Source: Dictyostelium discoideum
Taxonomy: Eukaryota
Length of the DNA stretch: 64,000 bases
Direction of reading: 5' to 3'
Assembly (NCBI GenBank): GCA_000004695.1
Contig: CM000151.3
Span: 1,504,001-1,568,000 of the forward strand
A program made the translations under genes and the position numbers. Of this stretch, positions 27,799 to 53,501 are shown in pieces (positions within the stretch are counted from its first letter, which is position 1; every line of letters starts with the position of its first letter). The notes under the pieces were generated by a model that saw only the letters and a list, made by a program, of their open reading frames with translations, made no database searches and had not been told where the DNA came from.

Positions 27799-27833
<35 letters not shown>

Positions 27834-27976
27834 AAAATTTAAAACAAGAAAAAAAAAAAAAAAAAAAAAATTAAAATTAAAAATAAAAAAAAAAAAAAAA
27901 ATAAATTAAAAATAACATTATTTTTATTTTTTATTTTTTATTTTTTTTTACTTTTAATAATCTTTTTTTTTTTTTT

Positions 27977-28046: not shown

Positions 28047-28107
28047 GTCCAAACACTAACAAAAAAGGAAAAAAAACAAAAAAAATGGGTCAAATCCTTT
28101 TGTTAAA

Positions 28108-28154
<47 letters not shown>

Positions 28155-28190
28155 GAGTTGTATTTTTATTTTATTAATTTTTATTAAATT

Positions 28191-29510: not shown

Positions 29511-29601
29511 ATTTATTTATTTATTTATTTATTACAATTATATATTTCATTAGTGTTCTATTAATTTAGATATTAATAAAAAAAAAAAAAAATTGGATTA
29601 G

Positions 29602-29646
<45 letters not shown>

Positions 29647-29816
29647 TCAACCGATCGACTATCCGAAATTAACCATTTTGTTTTTTCACACAAATAATTA
29701 CCAGATATTTTTAAAAAAAAGAAAAAGTTGGTATTAAAAAAAAAAAAAAAATAAAAAAAAAATTAAAATTAAAATTAAACAAAAATAAACCGTAAAAATT
29801 TAATACTGACGTAAAT

Positions 29817-29857
<41 letters not shown>

Positions 29858-29901
29858 TTTTAGTTTTCTAAAGAAAATTCAAATAAAAAAGACGTGTTCA
29901 A

Positions 29902-30360
29902 ATGAAAATTATTAATTATCAAGAGTGTCATCAAAAAGATCTTAAAAAACTTTCATATGAATGGTTAGAAAAATATGTTTCAATTGAACCAATCGATGAA
30001 GAGATGTTGAATAATCCAAAGAGTTTTATTTTAGATGGTGGTGGTCATATATTTATGGCACAACACGGTGAACATAATGAAACTGTAGGAACTGTCTCTT
30101 TAATACAAGTTGATGATAAAACTTTTGAATTAGCAAAATTAGCAGTCACTGAAAAATATCAAGGTTTAAAATTAGGTCAACATTTAATGGAACACTGTTT
30201 AAATGTTGCTAAACAACAAGGTGCAACTAAAGTTATTTTATATACAAATCAAAAATTAACAAAAGCAATTGGATTGTATAAAAAATTCGGATTCATTGAA
30301 ATACCATTAAATAATAATAAATATATAGAATCAGATTTAAAAATGGAATTATTATTTTAA
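29902..30360 (+). CDS. GNAT-family N-acetyltransferase, 152 aa, single exon.
   Basis: GNAT motif A ...LAVTEKYQGLKLGQHLMEHCLNVAKQQGATKVILYTN... (Q/R-x-x-G-x-G/A). Size and β-α pattern are typical. Clean ATG and stop with no intron signals. Confidence 0.75.
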   Translation: MKIINYQECHQKDLKKLSYEWLEKYVSIEPIDEEMLNNPKSFILDGGGHIFMAQHGEHNETVGTVSLIQVDDKTFELAKLAVTEKYQGLKLGQHLMEHCLNVAKQQGATKVILYTNQKLTKAIGLYKKFGFIEIPLNNNKYIESDLKMELLF

Positions 30361-30945
30361 ATTTATTTTATTAAAATATTATTATTTTTATTATTATTAA
30401 TATTATTCTTTTTTTTTTTTTCAAAAATTCTGCTTAACTTTTCTACAAACATTTGAATTTAGTGTGGTGCATGTCTGGATAAAAAAAAAAAAAATTTTCA
30501 AAAAAAAAAAAAAAGCGTTCCACAAGAACCACCCTTTTTTTTTTTTTGTCTTTTTTTCTCATATCAATTTTAACAATATCATTAGTTATTAAAATATGAT
30601 TTATAATTCTTTTTTTTTTTTTTTTTTGAAAAAAAAAATTCTCCAATCACAAATCTATAAATTATATTAATAAAAACCAAAAAAAAAAAAAAAAGTTCAA
30701 GCAAAGTGTGGTATGCAGGTAAAAATTTAAAAGAAAAAAAAAAAATTTAAAATCTTGCTTAACTTGTTTTTCTGAAAAAAAATATTTGCCAACCACAATT
30801 CCAAAAACATATTAATTTTTTACTACAAATCTATAAATTATATAAATAAAAAAAAAAAAAAAAAAAAAAGTATCCCCTCAAACAAAAACAATAATAATGA
30901 AAATAAAAAATTTAACCACCTAACACCATATTTCATATCATAAAA

Positions 30946-30991
30946 AAAATTAACACCCTCATTTACTAGTAAATGAGGGTGTTAATTTTTT
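30946..30991. repeat. Perfect palindrome (inverted repeat with no spacer) of about 44 bp: aaaattaacaccctcatttact|agtaaatgagggtgttaatttt, centred on ACTAGT.
   Basis: Read directly: the reverse complement of ttaacaccctcatttact is agtaaatgagggtgttaa, with the arms abutting. It sits in the intergenic region about 430 bp upstream of the PKS-A ATG. Confidence 0.9.
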
Positions 30992-31420
30992 TTATTTTAA
31001 ATCATCACAAAAACAAACCAAAAAAAATAATTTTACACCAAAAATAATAAAAAAGAATATTAATAATGAAAATAATAACCGCTAAATAATTAAATTTGTA
31101 TATAAATTGGTTTTGTTTTTTTTTTTAAATCATTATTTTATATATATATTTTCGCTTACTCAATAACCAGTATTTAAATATTGAAAAGTTTTAATAATTT
31201 ACACAGAAAAACTATCACCAATCAATAATAAAATCATTCGCATCAATTAAAGAATAAATTATAACATAACTTTTTTCTTTTTTTTTTTTTTTTATTTTTT
31301 AAAATATTTTTCATCCACACTCCATTTTCATCCACCAATTTCCATTTTTAAAAAAATAAAAGAAAATTTTCTGGAAGAATAAAACGCTAATAATTTTTTT
31401 TTTTTCTACATATATATATA

Positions 31421-34400
31421 ATGAATATTAAATTAAATAATAATGATCAATATAGTGACAGAGATGTTGCAATTATTGGTATTGGCTTTAGGTTACCAGG
31501 TAATAGTAATCGTGGAACAGAATTATGGCAAAATTTATTGAATGGATTTGATGGTATCGTTGAAACATCTGATAGATGGTCAGATTCTTTTAAAGATTTA
31601 GGTGAAATTCATTGTAAAGATGCCGGTTTAGTAGAGTTGGAGGATTGGGAGTCCTTTGATCCAATTCATTTTGGTATTAATCCTGCCGAAGCTAAACAAA
31701 TTGATCCACAACAAAAACTATTATTAAAATCAACATGGGAAGCTTTTGAAGATGCTGGAATTGATCCATTATCATTACGTGGTACATATACAAGTGTATT
31801 CGTTGGAGCATCTTCTTCTGATTATTCAACATCAATGGCAGAGAATTATGAAAAGCCAAACTTTAATGTTTTCAATTCAACAACTGGTAGTATTGCAAAT
31901 AGAATATCATATTGTTTTGATTTTCGAGGTCCATCATTAACTGTCGATACTGCATGTTCAAGTAAGTATTTCTTTTTTTTTTTTCTTTTTTAAAAAGGAA
32001 AGGGTCTAATATTTATATATATATATATTTTTTAAAAAAAAAGGTTCATTAAATGCATGTTTATTAGGTTACAAATCAATTATTGATGGCGAATGTAATT
32101 ATTCAATCGTATCGGGTTGTAATTTTATATTCAATCCAAATATTAGTAGAGGATTTACAACTATTAATATCATTGGTAAAAGTGGTAGATGTAAAGCATT
32201 CGATGAATCAGCTGATGGTTTTGTACGTGCCGAAGGTGTTGCAGTGTTAATATTAAAAAAGTTATCGATGGCAATCAATGATGGTGATCAAATTTATTCA
32301 ATCATTCGTGGTGGTAATTCAAATGTTGATGGTACATTAAATAAAGGTAATTTTATGAAACCATCAAAATCTGCACAATCAAATAATATCATTAAGGCAT
32401 TTGAATCAACAAATGGATCCATTGGACCATCTGATATTGATTTCTTTGAATTACATGGTACTGGTACACCAACAGGCGATCCGATTGAAGTAGAAGCAGT
32501 TTCAGATATTTTTAAGTCTGTCAAATCAAGTTCAAATCCATTATTAATTGGCTCAATTAAATCAAATATTGGTCATTTAGAACCAGCATCGGGTGTTGCA
32601 TCATTAATGAAAATTTGTTTAATGTTTAAACATCGTCAGTTTATTAAAAACATTCATTTTAATAAACCAAATGGTGACATTAAATTTGAAGAATGGAAAG
32701 TTAAAGTATGTACAGAGAATACACCATTCCCACAAAACAAACAAGTATCAATTGCAATCAATAGTTTTGGTATTACTGGTTCAAATGTTTGTTTGCTATT
32801 AAGTGAATATACAAACCAATCTAATGAGGCATCACCATCTACATCATCAACATTATCGCATCAAAATGATATTAAATATTTAATACCAATTTCAGCAAAT
32901 TCCAAAAAATCATTAGATGATATTAAAGAAGATTTAATTAATAATTCATCAGAATTATCAAAGAATTTACCATTTAAAGATTTTATTATAATCAAGTTTA
33001 TTCAAAATCAACAACATTAATCCAAAGATCAGTTATTTTTGCAAATGATTGGAATGATTTAAATTCAAATACTCAAATCATATCAACCAAAGGTAACATG
33101 TCTGGTAATATTGTAAAATCTGCAGGGGACGGTAATAACCAAAATGATCAAGATAATATTCTAGTGTATGTATTTTGTGGCCAAGGACCTCAATGGAATA
33201 AAATGGGCAATCAACTTTATAAAAATTCACCAAAATTCAAAGAAACAATGGATTTAATCGATTCAATACTTGAAAAACATTTTAAATACTCAATTCTATC
33301 AAAATTAAGATCAATCCAAGATGATGATAAAATTAGCATTAATGAACCAACAACGGCACAATCATCAATTTTAATGATTCAAATATCATTATTTGAATTA
33401 TATAAACATTGGGGTATTATACCAACAATCATCGTAGGTCATTCAATTGGTGAAATATCAGCAGCCTATTGTTCAGGTATGATTAACTTAGAAACAGCTT
33501 GTGAAATCATTTACAAAAGAAGTGTACTTCAAAAACAAACAGTTGGATTAGGTAAAATGTTAGCAATTGGATTAAATGAAAAACAATTTAAAGATCAATT
33601 TTCATCATCATTAAAATATTCAAATATCGAAATTTGTTGTTACAATTCACCATCATCAATTGTTGTTTGTGGTGATGAAATTGAATTAGAAAAAATATCA
33701 AATTCATTAAAAGAAAAACAAATATTTTCATTTTTATTAGGATCACCATCACCATACCATTCATCAAAACAAGAATTAATTAATGATCAGGTTTTAGAAT
33801 CAACCAGTAATATTAAATCAAACAAACCAAACATTCCAATATTTAGTACAGTAACAGGTGAATTATTCGAACTTGACCAAGACAATCAATTCAATTCTCA
33901 ATATATTTATGATAATATAAGAAATGCAGTATTATTTGAAAAAGCAATTGAAAACATTTTCAAATACATTGAAACAAATAATCTTGGTAAAAATATTCAA
34001 TTTTTAGAATTATCACCTCATCCAACATTATCACATTATTTAAAAGAGATGATAGCAGTAACAACGACAACAACATCAGATTACTTTCAACAACAATCAA
34101 TATCAGTTCTATCATCATTAACAAGAAATAAAAAGAATCAAAATCAAAATCAACAAAATGAAATGAATCAAATATTAAAATCAATTTCAGAATTATATTG
34201 TAATGGTTTTAATAATGTTAATTTTAAAAGTCAATTAAATGAACCAAGCAGAAATGAAACTATTGAATTTAAAAAAGCATCTTATTATTTACCACATTAT
34301 AAATTTGATGATGGAATTTATTTCACTCAATCACAATCATCATCAAATTATAAAAAGAATGGTTTTTCAACTAATCAATTAGGTATTCGTAATGAACAAT

Positions 34401-37400
34401 CACCATTTATATCATATACATCATTAATTGATATTGCAGAAGAACCATTTAGATTTTTAAAAGGTCACGCAGCAAAAGGTAAAGCATTATTTCCAGGTTG
34501 TGGTTATATTGATAATGTTTTAAGAGCATTCCCAAATAAAGATTTAACAATTAACAGTATGGAATTTAAATCACCATTACAACTATTTGAAGGAGTTAAA
34601 CAATGTTTAACCACAAACATTTATTCAAGTGGTAAAAATGAATACAGAGTTGTATTCAATTATAAAGATAATAAAACTGGTAAATGGATATTATCTGCCT
34701 ATGGTAGATTTACAATAAACAAACATAGTAGTGGTAGTAGTGGTAATATTAGTCAACCTAAAAAAGTTGATATTAATAAATATATTGAAAAATGCAATTA
34801 TACAAAAATTACAAAAAAAGATATTTATGAAGGTGTTAAATTAAAATTACAATTACATTTAACAGGACCATTCCAAATTATTGAAGAGGCATCATATGGT
34901 GACAGTCGTGGATTCTATAAAGTATCATTAAAGGATCCAATATCGAGTTATGACAATCAATTATTTTTAAATGTTTGTATACTTGATGCTTGTTTTCATT
35001 CAATGGCAACGGGTAAAGATAATCAAAATTTAACATTATTCGATAAGGTAGTGAATGGTCAGTTCTATTTCGATAATATTCCAAAATCAGCAATAGAAAG
35101 AGAACAATACCAATATTTATATTGTTATTCTAGATTAATTGCTCAAGTTGGTGATTCACTTTTCGCTAAAATTGTATTAATGTTACCAGATGGAACTGTA
35201 CTATTTAAAACACCATGTGCAGTTTACACTGAAATTAATTCAACAAATAATCAATATAAATTAGAATATCCAAATAATAATTTATATTCAATTGAAAAGC
35301 AATTAATTGATTCTCAATTAAACTCACCATTAATTCAATTTAATCAAATTATTAATTCTTTAGAAAATAATAATAATAATACATACCAATCATTAATTTT
35401 ATTTTATTTATATTCAATTATTAAAAATAATAATAATAATGATTTAACATTAGAAATAATAAATGAAAGTTCAACCGATCAATTAGTTAAAAGTTATTTT
35501 AAAATTAGTGATGATGAAAATGATATAGGAATAATTAATTTATTAAAATCAATATTTGAAATTTTAAAATCAAATATTAATACTTTATTCAAATGTAACA
35601 ATAGTGAAGTAAATAATAAATTAGAAATTAATCAAAAAGATAGTGAAACAATTAATGAATTGATCAAGTTTTTAGTGAATAATAATAAAGAACAACAAGA
35701 ACAACAATTATATACTCCTTATATAAAACAAAATGATATTATTAAAGATATTATAACAAATTCAGTTAAACCAATTTTAAATGAAAAAATTAAATTTAGA
35801 ATATTAGAGATTGGTTGTGGTATTGGTTTATTATCAGAAATCATTATCAATCAAATAAATTTATTATTTAAAGAGAATCCATTATCAGAAATTAGTATCG
35901 AATTCACTTATTCAGATTCAACATTTATACAAGCTGTTAAAGATAAAATTCAACAAATGATTCCAGAATCAACATTATTATCATTTAAAACTTTATTTAA
36001 TACAATTAATGTAAATGAAGATTTATTAGATCAAAATTTCAAACCATCTTATTATGATATTATTATTGTTAATGGTGTTAATTATTTAAATAAAGATAAA
36101 CAACTCAATTCAACAATCAACAATATTAATCAAATTTTAATTTCAAATGGTTATTTAATTATAATGGATACACATTATAAATCAAAAGTAGTCGATAAAC
36201 AAATTGAATTATATGAACAATGGTTATCATTTAATTTTAAATCAAAAAACAACAACAATAATAATAGTTTAACAAATGAACAATGGAATAATTTATTAGT
36301 TAATAAATTAAAATTTAAAGAATTCATATCAACATCATATGAACCATATTTATTAATTGTTCAAAAACCAACAATTGATGAAATCGTATTATCGACTCCA
36401 CAAAATATATCAAAGTTAATATCATCATATGATCAAATTATTAAATTTGATTCAAATTTAGGTCACAAAGATAATATAATTTCAGATATGCTAAACGATG
36501 GTAGTTTTGGTCTTTTAAGAATTACATCAATTGAAGAATTTGAAAAACATGTTGAAGCAAATCCATTGACAGATAGTTCGTTAATTCTTTTCTTTAGTTC
36601 AGTTAACGATTTAAATGAAATTAATTTTAATGAAATTACATTTGAATATATTAAAATCAACCAACATTTATTAAAAACCAAATGTAAATGTAAACATATA
36701 TTAGTTTCAAAGAATTCTCAAACATCTGCTGACGATGAAAATACATGTTCAAACTATTTAGGTACTTCAGTAATTGGTGCATTTAAATACTTTACCGAAT
36801 TTATAGATTTAAATATTTATGCAATTGATTATGGTTCAGATATTTATGAAATTAATTTAAATGATTTAATACTTCATAATGAATTAACAAATCCTTTAAA
36901 ACATATACAAAGAGAATATATTATAAGAGATAATAAAATATATTATGAATTTATAAAGTTAGAATCAAATATTAAAATGAAATATAAATCAAATTCATTC
37001 ATTCAAGATACAAATCAATTAGTATCAAAGATTGTTCCTCAAACATTAGAATTTAAATTATTAGCAAAAAGAGAATTAAAAGAAGATGAAGTCGAAGTTA
37101 AGGTTTTAGCAAGTGGTATTAATTTTAAAGACAATTTAATCTATCGTGGTTTAGTACCAAAAGAAGCAACAAATGAAATAGGTGACTCAACTGATCCACA
37201 AATTGGTTTCGAATGTTCAGGTATTATCACTAGAATTGGTAAAAAAGTAAATAAATTTAAAATTGGTGATTCAGTATTAGGTACTTGTTTTCATACAATG
37301 GCATCACATGTAAATTCAAATCAAGACAGATTTGTATTAAAACCAGATTGTTTATCATATGTCGAAGCTGCTTCAATTCCATTGGTTTATATCACATCAT

Positions 37401-40400
37401 ATTATTCATTATTGGTTCAAGGTGGTCTAAATTTAGAAAGAAATGATGAAGAGACTGTTTTAATTCATTCAGGTACAGGTGGTATAGGTTTAGCAGCAAT
37501 TGAAATATTAAAAGCAATTGGATTTAAATCATTATTATTCGTTACAGTTGGTTCAAAAGAAAAAGAACAATTTTTAAGAGATAGATATGGTTCATTTATA
37601 ACTGAAATTTATTCAACTAGAAACATTGACTATGTTAAAGATATAAAAAAGAAAATTAAAGAAATTAAAAAAGGTAAAGGTAAATTACTCACTCAATATG
37701 GTACATTATCATATGGAGTTGATTTAATTTTAAATACTTTATCAATTGAATTTATGGAATCAAATTTTTTACTTTTAAATCAAGGTGGTCGTATCGTTGA
37801 TTTATCAATCACCCATTTATCAACAACTGAAACAACTGATTATAATAAATTTAAATATTTCGTTGGTTATTCAACTGTTGAAGTAGTATCATTAGGTTTC
37901 TCAAAAGTTAAAGACTCACTTCAAATTGTTGTCAATATGATTAAAGATGGAAAATTAAAATTATTACCAATTATTGAATATCCAGTTAGTGAAATTAAAA
38001 ATGCAGTAGAGTATATTAGTGAAAGAAAACATATTGGTAAAATCGTTGTAAATTTTCAAACTACAAAAGATTTAGTACAAGATATAATTATTAAATCAAA
38101 TAATTCATTTGAAAATAATTATCTATTCCAATCACCTCAATACAATTTAAATAATACAACATTTGGTAATACTATATTAATTACTGGTCAAAAAGGATTA
38201 TCATTAACAATTATTAAATGGATATTATATTATTATCCAAATCAAGATAATAATACCAATAATAGTTTTATTAAAGATATAATAGTTTTATCAAAATCAA
38301 CAATTAATTATGAATTAGAAATTGAAATTGGAAGAGCAAGAAAAAAAGGATTAAAAACAAATATTCATTTTAAACAAGTTGATATTTCAAACAAAAATCA
38401 ATTATTCGAATCAATTGATGAATTATATAAATCAAATAAAGAATTAAAACCAATTGAAACTATATTCCATAATGCATTCGTACCAGTACAATCAGAACCT
38501 GAAGATATTGATTTACAACAATTAGTTGATTCACATGGTGCAAAAATAATTGGCGCAACCAATTTATATGATTATATTACATCAAAAGCTATGGTATTAA
38601 AGAACTATATAATTTCAGCATCAGCAACTTCTATAATGGGTTCAACAAGACAATGTGGTTATTGTTGTGCAAATGCAGTAATTGATTCATTCTCGAAATA
38701 TTTAAGAAGAAAAGGAATTCAATGTTTTTCACTAAAATATTCTCCAATTGAACAAAGTGGATATGTTGCAAGAAATGAATCTGTTGAAAAGCTATTAGCT
38801 TCAACTGGTTTAAATTCAATTTCAATTGGTACAGTTTTAGGTTCAATCGATTTAGCATTACAAAATCAAGATCAACTTAATAATAAATGTATTGTAGGTT
38901 TTGATTTCAAATTATTTTCTAAAAGACCAAATCATCTTCGATATATATTAGATTTCTACACCAATCAATATCAATCAAATAATGATGAATCTAATGATAA
39001 TGACGAATTTTCAATCAAAGATCAAATTTTAAACAAATTTTCAGAGTTATTACAAATTGAAGTTTCAAAGATTAATTTAGATATTAAAATGGTCGACTAT
39101 GGATTAGATTCATTAACAGTTGTAAATTTAAAAACATACTTGGATCAACAATTTTCATTTGGTCCAAATGTTTTATCAATTTCTCAAATTCAAAAAATTA
39201 CAATTGATCAATTATTGAATATTGTAAAAAATGAATTAAATAAAAAATCGAATTATAAAAATAATAATAATAATAAGAAATCAAATCAAAATAAACACAA
39301 ACAAATAATAGGTTCAACAATTAAGTGGGAAAATGAAATAAAATTAGATGATTCAATAATAGTAGATTTAAATGAAGATCAAATTAAAAATTATGAAAAC
39401 AATATTAATAATGAAAATGAAAATATTGTATTATTAACAGATGCAACCAGTTTTATTGGTATTTATTTATTATATGATTTAATAATTTTAGGAAATTATA
39501 AAAATGTTTATTGTTTATTAAATAATAACAATTCAAAAGAAGAAGGATTTAAAACAATCATTCAACTATTAAAAGAATACAAATTATTTGATAAATTAAC
39601 AAATGATCAAATTAATAAAATTGAAATTGTATGTGGTCACTACTCAAAAGAACAGTTTGGAATATCAAATGAAGATTATAATAACTTATCAAATCAAGTT
39701 AATATTATTTTAAATTGTGCAACTGATAGAAATTTAAATAAAAAGTATGAAGAATTTAATGAACAATTAGAAGGTATAAACCAATTTGTTAAATTTTCAT
39801 TCAATAATAAAATTAAGAAATTATTTCATTTATCAGCAATCGGGGTATACCAAGAAGATCCAAATACTGATGATGATTATTATTTACCACCATTGGAATC
39901 AATTGATAATATTAAATCTGGATATTTACAAAATAGAATTGTTCAAGAATATCGTTTAAGAAATGCAAATAAAATTCATGGATTACCAATAATGATAATT
40001 AGATTACCATTTTTATTCTCTGATGATAGTACAGGTATTGGTAGAGATAATGATGTAATTATGCTATTATTACAATCATGTTATATAATGAATACATGGC
40101 CATCAGATTTAGAGAATCAATTATTAAATTTAATACCTGTAACATTTGCAAGCAAATCAATATCATCAATTATTTCATCATTAAATGTTTGGAATCAATG
40201 CAAATCATTATCACCAATTAATAATTTAATTACATTTAATTTAGTTACAAATCAAATTTGTTTAGGTACCATTATGAATCAATTATCAAATGATCTTGGT
40301 TGGCGTAAAATTTCAACATTACAATTCATTAAAAAATTAGATATTTATGATAATGAATCTTGTAAAACATTATCATCTTTTATAAATAAAAAACTTTTCT

Positions 40401-40549
40401 TTAGTTTCTTATCTGTTGATGGTCAGTATAATTTTAATCAAGTTGTCAAAAATGAATTAATTTCAAATAATATATTTAATGGTTATAATGTTGATAAAAA
40501 TTCAATAATCAAACATTTAAGTTATACTTTTAAAAAGAAAATATTTTAA
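31421..40549 (+). CDS. Highly reducing type I iterative polyketide synthase (PKS-A), about 3015 aa if one frameshift is corrected. Exon 1 is 31421..31961, the intron is 31962..32043 (GTAAGT...AAAAAG), and exon 2 is 32044..40549. Approximate domains: KS 31430..32900, AT 33170..34050 (GHSIGE), DH about 34250..35100 (HAAKGKALFPGCGY), cMT about 35700..36400 (LEIGCGIGLLSE), ER about 37050..38050 (LIHSGTGGIGLAAIE), KR about 38150..38900 (ILITGQKGLSL), ACP about 39030..39240 (DYGLDSLTVVNLK), and a C-terminal reductase-like NAD_binding_4 domain 39420..40549.
   Basis: KS N-terminus DVAIIGIGFRLPG and active site DTACSSSL are split by the intron in phase 1. All motifs were read from the translation. There is a 1-bp deletion relative to PKS-B at about 32985 (tttattat versus tttatttat). 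It shifts the frame from 0 (ORF 32244..33020) to 2 (ORF 33098..40549). Confidence 0.8.
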
Positions 40550-43500
40550 ATTAAATATTAATAAATATTATTAAAAAATAAAAAACAAACTTTAAAATGT
40601 TTAAAATATTATCCGTATCTTCATTTTTTTTTTTTTTTTGAATCAGATAATGCAATTGTTGCTTCTCCTTAAGATATTTGTTCTCATTTTATTTAAGAGT
40701 TTATAATTCGATAGGCCTTAATTTTTATACATCCTTAAGATGCTGTTTTTTTTTTTTTTGTCTTTAATTTATACATAATAAATTAAAAAAAAAAAAATTA
40801 AAAAAAATAATATATTCGAACTACACTGTTATCAGTCTAAAATAATCCAATTTCTAAACACAAAATATCATTTTGTGTGTGAGATTTTAAATAGATTTTT
40901 TTTTGGGTCGAAATGATAATAGTTTTTTTAAAAAAAAGGTGTTAAAAAAAAAGAATCCGTTTTTTTTGAAAAGATTTTTTTTTTTTAAAAAAAGGTGGTG
41001 TAAAAAAAAAAAGAATTTTTTATTTGTTTTATTGTAATATAATCTTTTTTGCAAATAAGATTTTTTTTTTTAAGAAAAAAAAAAAAGATTTTTCTGGTGA
41101 GGCAAACGTCAAAAAAATTACTTTCACTTTAATTATTAGTTAGTTTTTTTTTTTATATCTGCAAATTAAATAATCTTTTATCAAGTAACACTAATAATTG
41201 CACTTTTTTTAAATCTTCAAAAAAAAATTTTAATCTCTTTCAAAGATTAATAAACAATCACTTTTTATTGTAAGTGTCTTTTGAAAAAAAAAAAAAAAAA
41301 AAAAAAAGAAAAATCTATTTTCATTTAATAAAAAAATAAAATAATTTATTTTCATTCTATTAAACAAAAAAACTATTCTATTTTAAATATTATTATTAAT
41401 TAAATTTAATATTTATTTTTAATTAATTATTTGTTTTTTTTTTTTTCCCATATATATAATGGATATTAAATTAAAAAATAATGATAAATATAGTGACAGA
41501 GATGTTGCGATAATTGGTATTGGCTTTAGATTACCAGGTAATAGTAATCGTGGAACAGAATTATGGCAAAATTTATTGAATGGATTTGATGGTATCGTTG
41601 AAACATCTGATAGATGGTCAGATTCTTTTAAAGATTTAGGTGAAATTCATTGTAAAGATGCTGGTTTAGTAGAGTTGGAGGATTGGGAGTCCTTTGATCC
41701 AATTCATTTTGGTATTAATCCTGCCGAAGCTAAACAAATTGATCCACAACAAAAACTATTATTAAAATCAACATGGGAAGCTTTTGAAGATGCTGGAATT
41801 GATCCATTATCATTACGTGGTACATATACAAGTGTATTCGTTGGTGCATCTGCTTCTGATTACTCAACATCGATGCCAGAGAATTATGAAAAGCCAAACT
41901 TTAATGTTTTCAATTCAACAACTGGTAGTATTGCAAATAGAATATCATATTGTTTTGATTTTCGAGGTCCATCATTAACTGTCGATACTGCATGTTCAAG
42001 TAAGTATTTCTTTTTTTTTTTTCTTTTTTAAAAAGGAAAGGGTCTAATATTTATATATATATATATTTTTTAAAAAAAAAGGTTCATTAAATGCATGTTT
42101 ATTAGGTTACAAATCAATTATTAATGGAGAGTGTAATTATTCAATCGTATCAGGTTGTAATTTTATATTCAATCCCCATATTAGTAGAGGATTTACAACT
42201 ATTAATATCATTGGTAAAAGTGGTAGATGTAAAGCATTCGATGAATCAGCTGATGGTTTTGTACGTGCCGAAGGTGTTGCAGTGTTAATATTAAAAAAGT
42301 TATCAATGGCAATCAATGATGGTGATCAAATTTATTCAATCATTCGTGGTGGTAATTCAAATGTTGATGGTACATTAAATAAAGGTAATTTTATGAAACC
42401 ATCAAAATCTGCACAATCAAATAATATCATTAAAGCATTTGAATCAACAAATGGATCCATTCAACCATCCGATATTGATTTCTTTGAATTACATGGTACT
42501 GGTACACCAACAGGCGATCCGATTGAAGTAGAAGCAGTTTCAGATATTTTTAAGTCTGTCAAATTAAGTTCAAATCCATTATTAATTGGCTCAATTAAAT
42601 CAAATATTGGTCATTTAGAACCAGCATCGGGTGTTGCATCATTAATGAAAATTTGTTTAATGTTTAAACATCGTCAGTTTATTAAAAACATTCATTTTAA
42701 TAAACCAAATGGTGACATTAAATTTGAAGAATGGAAAGTTAAAGTAAGTACAGAGAATACACCATTCCCACAAAACAAACAAGTATCAATTGCAATCAAT
42801 AGTTTTGGTATTACTGGTTCAAATGTTTGTTTGCTATTAAGTGAATATACAAACCAATCTAATGACGCACTTACCATAACATCATCAACATCACCAACAT
42901 TATCAAATGATTTTAAATATTTAATACCAATTTCAGCAAATTCCAAAAAATCATTAGACGATATTAAAGAAGAGTTAATTAATAATTCATCAGAATTATC
43001 AAAGAATTTACCATTTAAAGATTTTATTTATAATCAAATTTATTCAAAATCAACAACATTAATCCAAAGATCAGTTATTTTTGCAAATGATTGGAATGAT
43101 TTAAATTCAAATACTCAAATCATATCAACCAAAGGTAACATGTCTGGCAATTTTGTAAAATCTGCCGAGGATGGTGGTAACCAAAATGATCAAAGCAATG
43201 ATAATATTCTTGTTTTTGTATTTTGTGGCCAAGGACCTCAATGGAATAAAATGGGCAATGAGCTTTATAAAAACTCACCAAAATTCAGAGAAACAATGGA
43301 TTTAATCGATTCAATTTTTGAAAAACATTTTAAATACTCAATTCTATCAAAATTAAGATCAATCCAAGATGATGATAAAATTAGCATTAATGAACCAACA
43401 ATGGCACAATCATCGATTTTAATGATTCAAATATCATTATTTGAATTATATAAACATTGGGGTATTATACCAACAATCATTATAGGTCATTCACTTGGTG

Positions 43501-44024
43501 AAATATCAGCAGCCTATTGTTCAGGTATGATTAACTTAGAAACAGCATGTGAAATCATTTACAAAAGAAGTACACTTCAAAAACAAACAGTTGGATTAGG
43601 TAAAATGTTAGCAATTGGATTAAATGAAAAACAATTTAAAGATCAATTTTCATCATCATCAAATGTTGAAATCGTTTGTTACAATTCACCATCATCAATT
43701 GTTGTTTGTGGTGATGGAATTGAATTAGAAAAAATATCAAATTCATTAAAAGAAAAACAAATATTTTCATTTTTATTAGAATCACCATCACCATACCATT
43801 CATCAAAACAAGAATTAATTAAAGATCAAGTTTTAGAATCAACCAATAATATTAAATCAAACAAACCAAACATTCCAATATTTAGCACAGTAACAGGTGA
43901 ATTATTCAAACTTGGCCAAGACAATCAATTTAATTCTCAATACATATATGAAAATACTAGAAATGCAGTATTATTTGAAAAAGCAATTGAAAACATTTTC
44001 AAATACATTGAAACAAATAATCTT

Positions 44025-44160
44025 GGTAAAAATATTCAATTGGTAAAAATATTCAATTGGTAAAAATATTCAATTGGTAAAAATATTCAATTGGTAAAAA
44101 TATTCAATTGGTAAAAATATTCAATTGGTAAAAATATTCAATTGGTAAAAATATTCAATA
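44025..44160. repeat. Tandem array of a 17-bp unit ggtaaaaatattcaatt: 7 perfect copies plus 1 terminal variant. It sits at the deletion/inversion junction inside PKS-B.
   Basis: Units begin at 44025, 44042, 44059, 44076, 44093, 44110, 44127 and 44144. The unit is present once in the intact paralog (PKS-A 34012..34028, ..cttggtaaaaatattcaatttttag..). Confidence 0.9.
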
Positions 44161-44693
44161 TTGTAAATTTACCATGTGCAGATAATATCCATTTACCAGT
44201 TTTATTATCTTTATAATTGAATACAACTCTATATTCATTTTTACCACTTGAATAAATGTTTGTGGTTAAACATTGTTTAATTCCTTCGATTAATTGTAAT
44301 GGTGATTTAAATTCCATACTATGAATTGTTAAATCTTGGTTTGGGAATGCTCTTAAAACATTATCAATATAACCACAACCTGGAAATAATGCTTTACCTT
44401 TTGCTGCGTGACCTTTTAAAAATCTAAATGGTTCTTCTGCAATATCAATATATGATGTATATGATATAAATGGTGATTGTTCATTACGAATACCAAGTTG
44501 ATTAGTTGAAAAACCATTCTTTTTATAATTAAATACCGATTGTGATTGAGTGAAATAAATTCCATCATCAAATTTATAATGTGGTAAATAATAAGATGCT
44601 TTTTTAAATTGAATAGTTTCATTTCTGCTTGGTTCATTTAATTGACTTTTAAAATTAACATTATTAAAATGACAATTTTCATATATGTATTGA
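44161..44693 (-). other. Inverted (minus-orientation) fragment of the PKS DH-domain coding sequence inside PKS-B.
   Basis: Reverse-complement translation gives ...NEPSRNETIQFKKASYYLPHYKFDDGIYFTQSQS..FRFLKGHAAKGKALFPGCGYIDNVLRAFPN.DLTI.SMEFKSPLQL.EG.KQCLTTNIYSSGKNEYRVVFNYKDNKTGKWILSAHGKFTI. It is collinear with PKS-A 34190..34715. Confidence 0.85.
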
Positions 44694-47600
44694 CAATTAT
44701 ATACTCCTTATATAAAACAAAATGATATTATTAAAGATATTATAACAAATTCAGTTAAACCAATTTTAAATGAAAAAATTAAATTTAGAATATTAGAGAT
44801 TGGTTGTGGTATTGGTTTATTATCAGAAATCATTATCAATCAAATAAATTTATTATTTAAAGAGAATCCATTATCAGAAATTAGTATCGAATTCACTTAT
44901 TCAGATTCAACATTTATACAAGCTGTTAAAGATAAAATTCAACAAATGATTCCAGAATCAACATTATTATCATTTAAAACTTTATTTAAAACTATTAATA
45001 TAAATGAAGATTTATTAGATCAAAATTTCAAACCATCTTATTATGATATTATTATTGTTAATGGTGTTAATTATTTAAATAAAGATAAACAACTCAATTC
45101 AACAATCAATAATATCAATCAAATTTTAATTTCAAATGGTTATTTAATTATAATGGATACACATTATAAATCAAAAGTAGTCGATAAACAAATTGAATTA
45201 TATGAACAATGGTTATCATTTAATTTCAAATCTAACAACAACAACAATAATGATAATTTAACAAATGAACAATGGAATAATTTATTAGTTAATAAATTAA
45301 AATTTAAAGAATTCATATCAACATCATATGAACCATATTTATTATTTGTTCAAAAACCAACGATTGATGAAATCGTATTATCAAGTCAACAAAAGATATC
45401 AAAGTTAATATCATCATATGATCAAATTATTAAATTTGATTCAAATTTAGGTCACAAAGATAATATAATTTCAGATATATTAAATGATGGTAGTTTTGGT
45501 GTTGTAAGAATTACATCAATTGAGCAATTTGAAAAACATGTTGAAACAAATCCATTGACAGATAACTCGTTAATTCTTTTCTTTAGTTCAGTTAACGATT
45601 TAAATGAAATTAATTTTAATCAAGTTACATTTGAATATATTAAAATCAATCAATATTTATTAAAGACCAAATGTAAATGTAAACATATATTAGTTTCAAA
45701 GAATTCTCAAACATCTGCTGACGATGAAAATACATGTTCGAATTATTTAGGTACTTCAGTAATTGGTGCATTTAAATACTTTTCAGAATATATTGATTTA
45801 AATATATATTCAATCGATTATGGTTCAGATATTTATGAAATTAATTTAAATGATTTAATACTTCATAATGAATTAACAAATCCTTTAAAACATATACAAA
45901 GAGAATATATTATAAGAGATAATAAAATATACTATGAACATTTAAAATTAGAATCAAATATTAAAATGAAATATAAATCAAATTCATTCATTAAAGATAC
46001 AAACAAATTAATGACAAAAGTTGAACCTCAAACATTAGAATTTAAATTATTAGCAAAAAGAGAATTAAAAGAAGATGAAGTCGAAGTTAGGGTTTTAGCA
46101 AGTGGTATTAATTTTAAAGACAATTTAACTTATCGTGGTTTAGTACCAAAAGAAGCAACAAATGAAATAGGTGATTCAACTGATCCACAAATTGGTTGGG
46201 AATGTTCAGGTATTATCACTAGAATTGGTAAAAAAGTAAATAAATTTAAAATTGGTGATTCAGTATTAGGTACTTGTTTTCATTCAGTAGCATCACATGT
46301 AATTACAAATCAAGATAGATTTGTATTAAAACCAGATTGTTTATCATATGTCGAAGCTGCTTCAATTCCATTGGTTTATATCACATCATATTATTCATTA
46401 TTGGTTCAAGGTAATTTGGATTTTGAGGGTGATGAAGAGACTGTTTTAATTCATTCAGGTACAGGTGGTATAGGTTTAGCAGCAATTGAAATATTAAAAG
46501 CAATTGGATTTAAATCATTATTATTCGTTACAGTTGGTTCAAAAGAAAAAGAACAATTTTTAAGAGATAGATATGGTTCATTTATAACTGAAATTTATTC
46601 AACTAGAAATACTGACTATGTTCAAGATATAAAAAAGAAAATTAAAGAAATTAAAAAAGGCAAAGGCAAATCACTCACTCAATATGGTACCTTATCATAT
46701 GGAGTTGATTTAATTTTAAATACTTTATCAATTGAATTTATGGAATCAAATTTTTTACTTTTAAATCAAGGTGGTCGTATCGTTGATTTATCAATCACCC
46801 ATTTATCAACAACTGAAACAACTGATTATAATAAATTTAAATATTTCATTGGTTATTCAACTGTTGAAGTTATGACACCAAGTTTCTCAAAAGTTAAAAA
46901 AACACTTCAAATTGTTGTCAATATGATTAAAGATGGAAAATTAAAATTATTACCAATTATTGAATATTCAGTTAGTGAAATTAAAAATGCAGTAGAGTAT
47001 ATTAGTGAAAGAAAACATATTGGTAAAATCGTTGTAAATTTTCAAACTACTGAAAATGTAGTACAAGATTCAATTATTAAATTAAATAATTCATTTGAAA
47101 ATAATTATCTATTCCAATCACCTCAATACAATTTAAATAATACAACATTTGGTAATACTATATTAATTACTGGTCAAAAAGGATTATCATTAACAATTAT
47201 TAAATGGATATTATATTATTATCCAAATCAAGATAATAATACCAATAATAGTTTTATTAAAGATATAATAGTTTTATCAAAATCAACAATTAATTATGAA
47301 TTAGAAATTGAAATTGGAAGAGCAAGAAAAAAAGGATTAAAAACAAATATTCATTTTAAACAAGTTGATATTTCAAACAAAAATCAATTATTCGAATCAA
47401 TTGATGAATTATATAAATCAAATAAAGAATTAAAACCAATTGAAACTATATTCCATAATGCATTCGTACCAGTACAATCAGAACCTGAAGATATTGATTT
47501 ACAACAAATTATTGATTCAAATAGTGCAAAAACAATTGGTGCAATCAATTTATATGATTATATTAGTTCAAAAGCTATGGTATTAAAGAATTATATAATT

Positions 47601-50600
47601 TCATCATCAATGGCATCTGTAATGGGTTCAACAAGACAATGTGGTTATTGTTGTGCAAATGCAGTAATTGATTCATTCTCGAAATATTTAAGAAGAAAAG
47701 GAATTCAATGTTTTTCATTAAAATATTCAATAATTGAACAAAGTGGATATGTCGCAAGAAATGAATCTGTTGAAAAGCTATTTACAACCACTGGTTTAAA
47801 TACTATTTCAATCGGTACAGTTTTAGGTTCAATCGATTTAGCATTACAAAATCAAGATCAACTTAATAATAAATGTATTGTAGGCTTTGATTTTCAACTA
47901 GTTTCTAAAAGATCAAATCATCTTCAATATAAATTAGATTTCTATACCAATCAATATCAATCAAATAATGATGAATCTAATGATAATGATGAATTTTCAA
48001 TCAAAGATCAAATTTTAAATAAATTTTCAGAGTTATTACAAATTGAAGTTTCAAAGATTAATTTAGATATTAAAATGGTCGATTATGGATTAGATTCATT
48101 AACAGTTGTAAATTTAAAAACATACTTGGATCAACAATTTGTAATCGGACCAAATGTTTTATCAATTTCTCAAATTCAAAAAATTACAATTAATCAGTTA
48201 ATTAATTTTGTAAAAAATGAATTAAATAAAAAATCAAATTATAAAAATAATAATAATAATTTAAATAAAAATAAGAAATCAAATCAAAATAAACAGAAAC
48301 AAATAATAGGTTCAACAATTAATTGGGAAAATGAAATAAAATTAGATGATTCAATAATAGGTTTAAATGGAAATCAAATAATTTTTAATAATGAAAATGA
48401 AAATATTGTATTATTAACAGATGCAACTAGTTTTATTGGTATTTATTTATTAAATGATTTAATAATTTTAGGAAATTATAAAAAAGTTTATTGTTTAATA
48501 AATAATAACAATTCAAAAGAAGAAGGATTTAAAACAATCATTCAACTATTAAAAGAATACAAATTATTTGATAAATTAACAAATGATCAAATTAATAGAA
48601 TTGAAATTGTATGTGGTCACTACTCAAAAGAACAATTTGGAATATCAAATGAAGACTATAATAACTTATCAAATCAAGTTAATATTATTTTAAATTGTAC
48701 AACTGATAGAAATTTAAATAAAAAGTATGAAGAATTTAATGAACAATTAGAAGGTATAAACCAATTTGTTAAATTTTCATTAAAAAATAAAATTAAGAAA
48801 TTAATTCATTTATCAGCAATTGGAGTTTATCAAGAAGATCCAAATACTGATGATGATTATTATTTACCACCATTGGAATCAATTGATAATATTAAATCTG
48901 GATATTTACAAAATAGAATTGTTCAAGAATATCGTTTAAGAAATGCAAATAAAATTCATGGATTACCAATAATGATAATAAGATTACCATTTTTATTCTC
49001 TGATAATAACACAGGTATTGGTAGAGATAATGATATTGTTATGCTATTATTACAATCTTGTTATCTAATGAATACATGGCCATCGGAATTAGAGAATCAA
49101 TTTTTAAATTTAGTACCGGTAACATTTGCGAGCAAATCGATATCATCAATAACCATATCTTCAAATGTTTGGAATCAATGTAAATCATTATCACCAATTA
49201 ATAATTTAATTACATTTAATTTAATTGTTGATCATATTTCTTTTGGTACCATTATGAACCAATTATCAAATGATCTTGGTTGGCGTAAAATTTCAACATT
49301 ACAATTCATTAAAAAATTAGATATTTATGATAATGAATCTTGTAAAACATTATCATCATTCATAAAGAATCAAAATTTCTTTAATAGTTTATCTATTGAT
49401 GGTCAGTATAATTTTAATCAAGCTATCAAAAATGAATTAATTTCAAAAAATATATTTAATGGTTATAATGTTGATAAAAATTCAATAATCAAACATTTAA
49501 GTTATACTTTTAAAAAGAAAATATTATAAACTAAATATAAAAAAATTAAAAAAACACAGTCAAAGGTTTGTGTTTTTTTATTTTTTATTAATTAAAATCA
49601 AGTTTTTTTTTTTTTTTTTTTTTCGCCATTTTTAAAATTTTTTTTTTCTTTCTTTTTTTTATTTATTTTCTTATTCTTTTAAATAGACACTGGAGAAGTT
49701 TTGTTTTTTTTTTGATGAATAAAAAAAAAAAAAATAAAAAATTTAAAAAAAAAAAACCATCATTGAAACTAAGGGTAAAAGTATTACTTTTAAATTCAAA
49801 ATAAAAAATAAAAATAATACCAAATAAAATAAAACCACAACCAAAAATAAAAAAAAAAAAAATTAAAAATTAATTTAATGAAATTTTGTAAAATTAAATT
49901 CGATAAATTAATTTTTAATTTTATATCTAATTCTAAACTTTAGATTTTTACCAAACCAGCATAACTCAATTTTATAAAATTCTTTATACTTTTTTTTTTT
50001 TTAAAAACTTCTCAAATATATTTTTTTTTTTATAATACCCATACCACTTCAGCACCTTGTGAATATATTTTTTTTTTCTAATAATATAAAAAAAATTTTA
50101 ACACATCCAAATTGATCAGTTTTCTCAAAATGGCTAAATTTTTGATCAAAAAAAAAAAAAAAAAAGCATTGGAGTATAGGTTGTTTGGTTACCCCTAAGT
50201 AAATTGGGTGAAAAAAAAAAAGTAGTTTGGTATTACTGAACACACAATGTTGTGTTTACATATAAATATATAATAAAAAAATAATAATTAAAAAAAAAAA
50301 TAATTAAAAAAAAAATAATTAAAAAAAAAATAATTAAAAAAAATTATATAATTGAAAAAAAAAAAAAAAAAGAACACCACACCCAAAATAATTTTCTTTC
50401 TTTTAAAAAAAAAAATTAATTATAAACAATAAATAAACATTAAGAGAAAGAAAATTAAAAAAAGAAAATAAATATCGCATCAGGGAAATCACCGATGCAA
50501 TTTTCGTCATCAAAACAATCAAAAAATAAATTTTTTAAAAAATTCACAAAAAAAAAAAATTTCAAAAACCAAAATTTTTTTTTTTTTTTTTTTTTTTTTA

Positions 50601-50644: not shown

Positions 50645-51097
50645 ATGAATAAACTCGACATGGACGCATGTCAAATTTATGATCCTGAAGAGTTTGATGC
50701 ATGTAGGTGTGAAGAAATTTATTATAGTAGTAGTTCAAATGGTGATATTATTAATCCACAAGCAATCAGCGATCTAATCTTCAATGCTTTTCAAAATTTA
50801 GAAATTCATAATCCTGTGTGGGCAGAACGAGCTATTGAAATACTCAAAACAGTATATGAAGATACAAATAATTTTCTTTCTCGAAAAAATCTAGATTGTG
50901 GTAATGAATTTAAGGTTGCAATTACTAATCTAATACGTTGTCTCGAAATAAGGAAAAATTTAACCAGTTTTTTCGATTCATTGGATGATTTAATATCAAT
51001 ATTACAAGAGCTTGCTGAAGTACTCCCTCAAGATTATTGGGATTTTATAGATGCTATTGAAGGTGTTTTGATTGGCCTCTTTGAAATTCCAGATTAA
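50645..51097 (+). CDS. Hypothetical acidic protein, 150 aa, single exon, of unknown family. It has no signal peptide and no low-complexity run.
   Basis: Clean ORF MNKLDMDACQIYDPEEFDACRCEEIYY...EVLPQDYWDFIDAIEGVLIGLFEIPD. Its codon composition is less AT-skewed than the flanking intergenic DNA. No recognisable motifs. Confidence 0.5.
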   Translation: MNKLDMDACQIYDPEEFDACRCEEIYYSSSSNGDIINPQAISDLIFNAFQNLEIHNPVWAERAIEILKTVYEDTNNFLSRKNLDCGNEFKVAITNLIRCLEIRKNLTSFFDSLDDLISILQELAEVLPQDYWDFIDAIEGVLIGLFEIPD

Positions 51098-51449: not shown

Positions 51450-53501
51450 TTAAATATTTTTTAAGTTATCATAAAGTGAATTAATAAAATTACCAGAACA
51501 TAATTTTAAATTATTATTTTTAATTAAATTTTCAAAACACAATTGATTTTCAATTATATTATAATTATTATAATATGTGTAAATTGTTGTTGATTTTGGT
51601 AATGGAAATTTAAATTTACACATAGCACTAAATAAAATTAAATGATTAATTGATGGTTTTAACCAATCACTTGATATTGTACCTTGAAAAGTTGGACCTA
51701 ATGATAAACAAGTTAAAGAATCTGGTAAATTTGGTAGATTTAATTGATTTAATGGTTGATTTAATTTTAAAGAACGTAATGAATTTGGAAATATTTTAAA
51801 ATCTATAACTTCTTGAATACCATAACCTAATTCAATATTTGTTAATGTATTTGGAAATATTACTCTACTAATTGGATGCTTAAAATGGTAATCAAATATT
51901 ATTGATTTTAAATTTTTCATATTCATAAATACTTTTGGTGTTAATTTTTCATTTTTATAACTTGAAAATTTAATTGATACAATTGATGTTGAAAAGTGAT
52001 CACATTCAAATTGATCTTTAAAATGACTCGTAATTGTTAACGATCTTAATGAGTTACATTTTATTAAACATTGATTATATGGACCTTCATATTGTGTTAA
52101 ATTTAATAATTGATTTGAAAATAGTGATGTTAAAGATTGTTCTTCTGATAAATGTATTTTTGAATGTTGAGGTTGTAATTCTGGTGAAACCAATTTTGGT
52201 TCTATAATTTTCAATGATTTAATTGAAGTTGGTAAATCATCATATTGTAATAAAAGTTTTTTAGTATATAATAAAACGTATGTTAATTCTAACGATTCAA
52301 GATTCTTTAAAAATGGTTTTAAATTTCTGAGTGATTGACTACAACTAATTGATAAATGTTTTAAAGTTGTCGGTATTGATTTAATGGGGGATTTAAAACA
52401 ATGTTCACCAAAAATTAAAGTTTCCAATGATGGCGGTAACTCATCAACTTCTAATTGATGATTGAATTTACAATCAATTGAAAATATTAATTCTTTTAAT
52501 GAGTTTGGAAGTGTAAATTTTTTAAATTTCTTATCAAATTCTCTACCAATATAAAGCTTTTCTAATTTATTTGTATTTAAAAAACAATAGTTATTTAAAG
52601 ATTTATTAAATGATTCACCAAATTTTAAAACTTTTAATTCTTTTGGTAATACATTCTTTCCAATTTCACAATTAAAATGATAACCAAATTCTAAAAAAGT
52701 AATTGATGATGGTAAACAACCTTCATTAATCTCTGTATTAAATGAATCACCAAATGTTAAACTTGTTAAACTATTTGGTAATAAACCCCTAAATAACTTT
52801 TCATTATAAAAATCTGCAAATAACAATTCTTTTAAATTATTTGGTAATTTTTTAATTTCACATTTATGATAATTACTATATCCACTTTTATTCTTTTGAC
52901 CAAAATCTAAATATCTTAATTTATTTGATGATTCATTAATACTACCATTACCACTACCATTGCCACTACCATTACCATTACCATTGCCACTACCATTACC
53001 ACTACCATTGCCACTACAATTACCACTACCACCTTCTAAAGATTGAATAAATGGTATAGTTTTAAAAGATAATTGATCATTTAAAATTAAAGATTTTATA
53101 TTTGAATGAATTGAATCATTTGAAAATGATGAATAAAATGAACCAACAAATTCTAGTGATGTTACTGAACGAGGTATGAACCCAGATTTAAAAATATTTG
53201 CTGATGGTCGATGTGAACTATTTTCAATTTCAACTGTATCAATATTCTCTGGTAATGATTCTAATATTGATAATACTCTTTGAAGATTATTTATATTTTT
53301 TTTACCACCAATAAAAAAATAAACCCTTTTCAAATACATTTTATATGGATAGTTTAACCAATATTGATATTCTTTATCTGTATTTATTTTGAAATCAACC
53401 CTATTAAAATTATTTAAAAAAATCATTTCCTTAAATATAAGATTTCTAATATATACATTTCTCCATAGTAAAAAAAATAAAAAATCATTATTATTTTCCA
53501 T
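51450..53501 (-). CDS. FNIP-repeat-containing protein, 683 aa, single exon, with an internal (GSGN)n low-complexity run.
   Basis: Repeated units of about 22 aa of the form LP.SL..L.FG..FN..I..G.LP (for example LPNSLTSLTFGDSFNTEINEGCLPSSITFLEFGYHFNCEIGKNVLPKELKVLKFGESFNKSL). The GSGNGSGNGSGNGNGNGSGNGSGNGS block is encoded at about 52920..53010. Confidence 0.75.
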   Translation of the reverse strand: MENNNDFLFFLLWRNVYIRNLIFKEMIFLNNFNRVDFKINTDKEYQYWLNYPYKMYLKRVYFFIGGKKNINNLQRVLSILESLPENIDTVEIENSSHRPSANIFKSGFIPRSVTSLEFVGSFYSSFSNDSIHSNIKSLILNDQLSFKTIPFIQSLEGGSGNCSGNGSGNGSGNGNGNGSGNGSGNGSINESSNKLRYLDFGQKNKSGYSNYHKCEIKKLPNNLKELLFADFYNEKLFRGLLPNSLTSLTFGDSFNTEINEGCLPSSITFLEFGYHFNCEIGKNVLPKELKVLKFGESFNKSLNNYCFLNTNKLEKLYIGREFDKKFKKFTLPNSLKELIFSIDCKFNHQLEVDELPPSLETLIFGEHCFKSPIKSIPTTLKHLSISCSQSLRNLKPFLKNLESLELTYVLLYTKKLLLQYDDLPTSIKSLKIIEPKLVSPELQPQHSKIHLSEEQSLTSLFSNQLLNLTQYEGPYNQCLIKCNSLRSLTITSHFKDQFECDHFSTSIVSIKFSSYKNEKLTPKVFMNMKNLKSIIFDYHFKHPISRVIFPNTLTNIELGYGIQEVIDFKIFPNSLRSLKLNQPLNQLNLPNLPDSLTCLSLGPTFQGTISSDWLKPSINHLILFSAMCKFKFPLPKSTTIYTYYNNYNIIENQLCFENLIKNNNLKLCSGNFINSLYDNLKNI

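Follow-up and report, generated by a model that had tools for sequence, protein, structure and literature searches.

A recent inversion with flanking deletions in one of two tandem polyketide synthase genes of laboratory Dictyostelium discoideum

We analyzed a 64,000-nucleotide stretch of the Dictyostelium discoideum AX4 reference (chromosome 2; GCA_000004695.1, contig CM000151.3, positions 1,504,001 to 1,568,000, forward strand; hereafter the window), which has a G+C content of about 22% and carries two large plus-strand genes in tandem. On the basis of Pfam matches and motifs, both are iterative type I polyketide synthases (PKSs). The upstream gene, copy A (31421..40549), is used here as the reference paralogue and has the order ketosynthase (KS), acyltransferase (AT), dehydratase (DH), C-methyltransferase (cMT), enoylreductase (ER), ketoreductase (KR), acyl carrier protein (ACP) and reductase (R). 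The downstream gene, copy B (41459..49529), runs from an ATG at 41459 to a stop codon at 49527..49529 and has been rearranged in its DH region. Each copy has a single 82-bp intron within the KS active-site codons (31962..32043 in A and 42000..42081 in B).

Two tandem synthase genes and the structure of the lesion

When the reading frame of copy A is corrected, as discussed further below, Pfam recovers KS, KS-C, KAsynt_C_assoc, AT, a weak PKS_DH_N match and a weak methyltransferase match, followed in the C-terminal part by ER (ADH_N/ADH_zinc_N_2), KR, ACP (ACP_SdgA_C) and a terminal NAD_binding_4 reductase. The KS is identified by ketoacyl-synt (E=1.4e-68) and Ketoacyl-synt_C (E=1.2e-27) together with the motifs DTACSS, HGTGT and N-x-GH, which can be read in both copies, and the AT by Acyl_transf_1 (E=1.3e-45) with GHSIGE in A and GHSLGE in B. 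The remaining domains are recognizable in A and in the 3' frame of B, with matches to Methyltransf_23 (weak), ADH_N/ADH_zinc_N_2, KR, ACP_SdgA_C/PP-binding and NAD_binding_4. The DH motif HxxxGxxxxP lies collinearly between AT and cMT in copy A (H989) and in the intact orthologues introduced below (loci L005-L008), and is missing from that position in copy B.

Copy A and ancestral copy B share this Pfam order, including ACP_SdgA_C and NAD_binding_4, with the fungal highly reducing PKSs that end in a C-terminal reductase, but they are amoebozoan and differ in the R-domain motif. Thioester reductases usually have TGxxGxxG; at this place A, B and all orthologues read TDATSFIG (residues 2645-2653 of copy A; window positions of about 39.3 kb in A and 48.3 kb in B), and the activity of the release domain is consequently uncertain, such that it may be atypical or inactive. 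The two genes could not be linked to named pks genes, and the neighbouring DDB_G02721xx identifiers are not mentioned in the literature searched; pks11 and pks12 may be the chromosome-2 pseudogenes in question. The open reading frame at 50645..51097, downstream of copy B, is 100% identical to DDB_G0272164 of D. discoideum AX4.

A comparison of B with A by BLASTN, repeated as a self-BLAST of the window, bears out the head-to-tail duplication proposed in a preliminary description of this DNA. The ends of the repeat unit given there, about 20 bp upstream of the ATG and at the stop codon, need to be moved outward, as the similar stretch reaches 25-27 bp ahead of the ATG and 25-29 bp past the stop codon. 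Because similarity is confined to the gene and these flanks of about 25-29 bp (window 40579-41433 compared with the sequence upstream of 31393), the two copies today share essentially no promoter or terminator sequence.

The alignment resolves copy B into three blocks. The 5' block is collinear with A through the AT, as had been described (41434..44041, plus strand, equivalent to A 31394..34002, 96.1% identity), and holds the complete KS and AT. It is followed by an inverted block at 44159..44669, on the minus strand, equivalent to A 34717..34207 (511 bp, 95.7%, E=0), which represents the N-terminal half of DH (amino acids ~902-1072) and forms the minus-strand diagonal that had been predicted. 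The 3' block, 44693..49554 on the plus strand (A 35704..40578, 94.7%), carries cMT-ER-KR-ACP-R. Absent from B are A 34003..34206 (204 bp of post-AT linker, amino acids ~834-902) and A 34718..35703 (986 bp comprising the C-terminal half of DH and a linker, amino acids ~1073-1401). The net change is therefore the loss of 204 + 986 bp (1190 bp), the inversion of 511 bp and the addition of 119 + 23 bp. The preliminary description had the orientation of the DH piece and the existence of both deletions right, and had placed the limits of the deletions off by tens of bases; its length of 533 bp for the inverted piece included a 23-nt insert (44670..44692) that is not collinear with it. Forward sequence had also been said to restart inside cMT. 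It resumes instead at the N-terminal edge of this domain, with cMT motif I (ILEIGCGIG) following about 35 codons further on.

In copy B, the spliced 5' frame encodes 840 amino acids that retain DTACSS, HGTGT and GHSLG and end in ...NLGKNIQLVKIFNW* at 44061..44063, in agreement with the earlier proposal of a KS-AT-only frame stopping within the junction. The tail that follows KS-AT consists of nine frameshifted residues (NIQ, still read in the original frame, followed by LVKIFNW in the shifted one). Over the inverted block a minus-strand frame is open (44141..44707); it includes HxxxGxxxxP, and its translation matches PKS_DH_N (E=1.8e-5). The 3' frame runs uninterrupted for 1611 codons, from 44694 to the stop codon at 49527..49529, and its first ATG, at 44946, opens a 1527-amino-acid reading frame. 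The disabling lesions in the coding sequence of copy B are a frameshift with a stop at 44061..44063, the inversion of half of DH and the deletion of 1190 bp.

Two features at the junctions were absent from the preliminary description, and both bear on mechanism. At the left junction, a plus-strand tandem array (44023..44159) consists of 8.1 perfect copies of the 17-bp unit TTGGTAAAAATATTCAA (Tandem Repeats Finder, 100% matches, score 274). The unit corresponds to the final 17 bp ahead of the breakpoint, so that the array adds seven extra copies, or 119 bp. Since 17 bp do not make up whole codons, the reading frame shifts at the second unit and runs into the stop codon at 44061..44063, which is located in the third unit. 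A single unit is present in copy A and in each of the intact orthologues (L005-L008); among the eight loci that we fetched, a tandem dimer of it occurs only in L002 and L004, two loci of a near-identical strain that are described below.

At the right junction, the 23 non-collinear nucleotides at 44670..44692 read TGACAATTTTCATATATGTATTG. According to a k-mer search, a 19-nt stretch at 44675..44693 matches B 43937..43955 perfectly in reverse-complement orientation; the matching segment of B is situated 86-104 bp upstream of the left breakpoint. This template (plus strand, TCAATACATATATGAAAAT) is specific to B, with A and the wild orthologue reading TCAATATATTTATGA(T/A)AAT, and the 19-nt insert carries the two substitutions that set B apart from both. 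The 8-nt sequence TGACAATT is directly repeated at 44670 and 44690 and so brackets the insert. In an empirical null, 9 of 2000 random 23-mers of the PKS region matched at least 19 nt within 1.1 kb (p ~0.005). Like the tandem dimer, the insert motif is found in L002 and L004 only.

Reality of the lesion and its distribution among strains

De novo assemblies combining Nanopore and Illumina reads are available for AX2-214 and nine wild isolates (PMC12745789). One of these, GCA_054883475.1 (locus tags ACTFIT), is the source of L002 and L004, the former having been reached through a 3015-amino-acid protein that clusters with copy A. This assembly is most likely that of AX2-214, which is the only near-identical laboratory strain in the project, as judged from 99.7% identity and the strain list. 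L002 is collinear with window 21357..50551 at 99.68%, with differences mostly in the length of intergenic homopolymers. Between 42010 and 47242 there are zero differences, so that the whole junction region is identical, down to an array of exactly eight 17-mers and a matching 23-nt insert. The annotation of L002 divides copy B, by ab initio calls, into an 840-amino-acid KS-AT gene (KAM9951788.1), a gene on the minus strand that covers the inverted DH, and a 1527-amino-acid gene (KAM9951789.1). The first product is identical to the 840-amino-acid translation from the window, and the 1527-amino-acid product is one residue off (47242 C/A). Exact-protein look-ups of the window reading frames 44946..49529 and 51450..53501 gave no match.

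The preliminary description had left the choice between a recent structural mutation and an assembly artefact. It is conceivable that reads from near-identical repeats, or a misoriented small contig, could have produced a false inversion with deletions, since the inverted block is, at 511 bp, about the length of a Sanger read, the copies are 95-96% identical, and in copy A a 1-bp indel and several homopolymers of unequal length separate the window from the newer assembly. The probability of such an artefact is nevertheless negligible, as the independent assembly (PMC12745789) repeats the junctions base for base, with the 8 x 17-mer array and the 23-nt insert included, and the window contains no runs of N. 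The inverted block also differs from A by about 4% and has variants of the B lineage, and it therefore represents the DH of copy B itself and not misplaced reads from A. The lesion is thus real in the NC4-derived lineage. A related candidate, in which the inverted block would be a copy of the A DH introduced by gene conversion or misassembly, was rejected because lineage-informative sites are largely B-type and because the block is 95.9-97.4% identical to the wild B-orthologues and 95.7% to A.

The other reading, that of a recent structural mutation, is supported both by the identical junctions in the sister strain and by an intact, collinear orthologue in three other genomes. A homology search with the 840-amino-acid KS-AT query returned mostly bacterial PKSs, and the B orthologues were obtained from a cluster listing: the 90% cluster of the B fragments holds intact proteins of 3014 (ACTFIR), 3018 (ACTFIW) and 3013 amino acids (ACTFIZ, D. 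cf. discoideum). The corresponding loci (L005-L008) come from two wild isolates of D. discoideum and from a cryptic sister species, each with two intact tandem PKS genes and a forward DH, the upstream genes encoding 3037, 3032 and 3020 amino acids and the downstream ones 3014, 3018 and 3013. The downstream wild gene adjoins the DDB_G0272164 region, as copy B does. The orthologous copies are collinear with A over 9.2 kb, and the inverted block of B maps to them in reverse at the identities given above.

In a neighbour-joining tree of the 3' 4.8 kb, AX4 B groups with the downstream wild copies (2.7-2.8% divergence) and AX4 A with the upstream ones (3.6-3.8%). As the A and B clades are common to the wild isolates, in which both copies are intact, the duplication is an old one, and only the NC4 laboratory lineage has the lesion; the shared clades also rule out a recent duplication of A and B. 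The two ACTFIZ copies cluster together in the same tree, which points to concerted evolution. At 256-9424 and 10001-19148 of L008 they are 3.5% apart, compared with 4.7-7.0% to the D. discoideum A or B clade, a similarity that suggests either concerted evolution or an independent duplication.

Exchange between the copies is also visible within AX4. Near-identical A/B patches lie at window 35704-36334, 31886-32636 and 38136-38386 (and the B equivalents), with 100% identity over the first 137 bp past the right breakpoint and 98-98.6% elsewhere. Compared with the wild strains, the patches carry a mosaic of A-type and B-type states, from which we infer bidirectional, ongoing gene conversion between A and B in the AX4 lineage. 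The A-like tract at the right breakpoint was considered as proof of repair from A and was rejected as such, as homogenization runs both ways (about 35704-36334 and the other patches) and a deletion within a homogenized tract would leave an identical pattern.

A further observation concerns the syntenic locus of ACTFIY (L001, D. cf. discoideum, GCA_054859205.1), which has a single, heavily decayed PKS copy. A 107-bp inverted piece at 7713-7819 spans the exon 1/intron boundary and lies beside a 5' deletion in which the acetyltransferase gene has been lost as well, and internal deletions at 10345/10350 and 11935/11938 correspond to A 34548-37174 and 38791-39413. Similarity along this copy alternates between A-like and B-like, as expected of an unequal-crossover fusion. 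It represents a second, independent small inversion with deletion at the same locus.

Age, coding capacity and origin of the rearrangement

The age of the lesion can be read from codon changes polarized with the A clade, for which neutrality corresponds to a ratio of non-synonymous to synonymous changes (N/S) of 4.04. Since its split from the wild B-orthologues, copy B has gained 31 synonymous and 20 non-synonymous changes (omega ~0.16), and the intact wild copies 24 and 12. The B counts do not differ from those of the wild copies (Fisher p=0.65) and depart strongly from the neutral expectation (p=2e-10). A rough two-phase mixture estimate places the neutral share of the B branch at about 5%, with an upper bound of about 19%, and the three retained blocks of B contain zero stops or frameshifts. 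As the substitutions in B still appear to be under constraint, like those of the intact orthologues, the break is recent.

The simplest reading is that copy B would be a dead gene. Intact relatives exist in the form of copy A (3015 amino acids in L002) and the B-orthologues of 3014, 3018 and 3013 amino acids. A transcript from the B promoter would encode KS-AT with a frameshifted tail, copy B holds no DH in sense orientation, and its cMT-ER-KR-ACP-R frame has no start before 44946. The protein collection that we searched holds no model of B from the AX4 annotation, and copy A is represented there only by a 2448-amino-acid UniParc model that looks obsolete and starts after the frameshift in A; the missing B model and the short A model are consistent with pseudogene calls in the reference.

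It could be speculated that copy B is a split yet functional synthase, in which the 840-amino-acid KS-AT and the 1527-amino-acid cMT-ER-KR-ACP-R product (from the ATG at 44946) act jointly, or with A, as a PKS devoid of DH. The retained blocks have kept all of their catalytic motifs, secondary disabling mutations are absent, omega is about 0.16, and ab initio annotation calls both halves as genes. We regard this as highly improbable. Intact motifs and a low omega are equally expected of a very young pseudogene, the gene calls are purely predictive, the 840-amino-acid product has a frameshifted end, and the 3' half has no identifiable promoter of its own and sits behind a 0.9-kb scrambled segment. 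Iterative type I PKSs depend, moreover, on covalent linkage and dimer architecture, and the literature searched gives no support for such an enzyme in dictyostelids. A bolder proposal, hardly any more probable, is that the expressed halves cooperate in trans with each other or with A to yield a DH-less or hybrid polyketide without a counterpart in wild strains or, in its weaker version, that this locus and the L001 lesion mark a recurrent template-switching process of a 78% A+T genome.

As to the origin of the break, we favour copy B as a dead gene created by a single replication-based event, which could be pictured as follows. Synthesis would have proceeded forward to an ancestral position X at the end of the AT/post-AT linker and then stuttered, with seven extra rounds over the last 17 nt. 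It may next have jumped about 0.7 kb ahead to the opposite strand, from which 511 nt of the N-terminal half of DH would have been copied backwards. After four or five unassigned nucleotides, a further jump would have led to a point on the opposite strand about 90 bp short of X, where the 19 nt were copied, and synthesis would finally have returned to its original template 1.7 kb downstream of X, just ahead of cMT.

Fork stalling and template switching (FoSTeS) and microhomology-mediated break-induced replication (MMBIR) are known mainly from human genomic disorders, yeast and bacteria. Copy B resembles their products in having several breakpoints in cis within less than 2 kb, deletions together with inverted segments, an insert templated from the opposite strand and a return to the template. 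Three junctions and the tandem array fall within 44023..44693, which corresponds to about 1.8 kb of ancestral sequence, the insert at 44675..44693 is templated by 43937..43955, and both inverted pieces have the same orientation. Strand switches between nearby templates, a templated insert and a return to the template together fit the FoSTeS/MMBIR pattern. Copy B is unlike these products in that its junction microhomology is minimal (1 nt, and an imperfect 8-mer) where 2-15 nt would be expected per switch, in that a perfect array of eight 17-bp units is not a standard hallmark, and in that the scale is only hundreds of bp; a single allele does not suffice to prove the mechanism.

On these grounds we consider it very probable that copy B is a young non-processed pseudogene of a tandem highly reducing PKS that arose by an old duplication and was broken by one local complex rearrangement, probably through template switching, in the NC4 lineage. 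The structure, its reality, its lineage specificity and its recency are shown, and the single replication-based origin and the loss of function are inferred. Several points weigh against this reading. Microhomology at the junctions is limited to 1 nt at 44159 (array to inverted block), 1 nt at 44693 (insert to resumption) and an imperfect GAGAATTA/GACAATTA match, GA(G/C)AATTA; owing to this weakness, a single FoSTeS/MMBIR-like origin is given only moderate weight, and the microhomology itself was judged without the ancestral B sequence at the deleted sides. One event and successive events fit the sequence alike and cannot be told apart from sequence alone, and the 17-mer array, although perfect, could have arisen later as an expanding minisatellite. 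The second assembly is named as AX2-214 from its identity and the strain list, and as AX2 and AX4 share the NC4 ancestor, it demonstrates the structure and not the presence of the allele in nature. Finally, copy B lacks the signature of relaxed selection that a pseudogene might carry (omega ~0.16, no secondary stops), and conserved open fragments are also expected from continued function.

The origin could alternatively lie in stepwise decay, in which an inversion or deletion by double-strand-break end joining, with an insert of the polymerase-theta type at the right junction, came first and a second deletion and slippage of the 17-mer followed in an already dead gene. Microhomology-mediated end joining, too, typically leaves short templated inserts with direct repeats, such as the doubled TGACAATT; slippage can lengthen a tandem array without any rearrangement; and the single ACTFIY copy, with its several separate deletions and 107-bp inverted bit, shows that decay at this locus can proceed in multiple steps. 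Polymerase-theta end joining would, in particular, account for a 23-nt insert made of copies of flanking sequence and bracketed by an 8-nt direct repeat, but alone it would not explain the 511-bp inverted block and the 119-bp array. The substitutions in B, furthermore, leave almost no neutral phase, so that several independent events would have had to follow one another quickly; the array is free of mismatches (100% identity) and begins exactly at the breakpoint; and the junctions all lie within about 1.8 kb, with both foreign pieces being inverted copies of nearby B sequence. Stepwise decay is accordingly a tentative alternative that we hold to be unlikely, and a single event is preferred.

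D. discoideum is reported to have about 40-45 PKS genes, with five pseudogenes interrupted by stop codons (PMC9618038), in a family that has undergone lineage-specific expansion (PMC3188802). Copies A and B are alike to this family as large single-module synthases with a short intron at the KS active site and tandem paralogues, whereas the literature searched describes neither a lesion of the type found in B, with its inversion, array and templated insert, nor the lack of this lesion in wild isolates. Copy B is a new, well-resolved instance of a tandem-paralogue pseudogene and of a template-switch-type rearrangement, and no new kind of system. The lesion itself is of modest general interest, and its breakpoints are unusually informative. 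The laboratory strains AX2 and AX4 are without one PKS that is intact in wild isolates, which is relevant to natural-product mining and knock-outs in Dictyostelium. For genome biology, the locus offers a clean, datable, small complex rearrangement with its ancestral state preserved in sister genomes, and may be useful for the study of template-switching mutagenesis in an extremely A+T-rich eukaryote.

The copy A frameshift and neighbouring duplications

Copy A in the window lacks one T at 32985, where it reads ATTTTATTATAA compared with ATTTTATTTATAA in copy B and in the AX2-type L002. The deletion splits the frame of copy A into 31421../32244..33020 and 33098..40549. With the base restored, copy A encodes 3015 amino acids, and L002 encodes an intact protein of this length (KAM9951787.1). 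Changes derived in AX4 A still appear to be under constraint (30 synonymous, 26 non-synonymous). An apparent relaxation of selection on A in a three-taxon count (57 synonymous, 99 non-synonymous) mostly dissolves when proper orthologues are used, which give the 30/26 above and an omega of about 0.21. The missing base reflects either an error in sequencing the reference or a frameshift that arose very recently and in AX4 only. The AX4 reference may therefore misreport copy A as frameshifted; if the frameshift is real, AX4 has neither PKS copy intact.

Local duplications abound throughout this region. Just upstream of the PKS pair lie four paralogous minus-strand genes (18862-20243, 24017-25509, 25963-27455 and 28163-29510) with about 86-88% DNA identity, which form a dispersed tandem array and for two of which Glyco_transf_17 (PF04724) is recorded in the AX2-type annotation. 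Downstream, a minus-strand tandem gene pair at 51433-53554 and 53983-56017 is about 80% identical, and the orthologous loci carry a gene with FNIP repeats (PF05725) at this place. At the 3' end of the window, a large EGF-repeat gene contains internal repeats of 250-bp period at 62371-63471.

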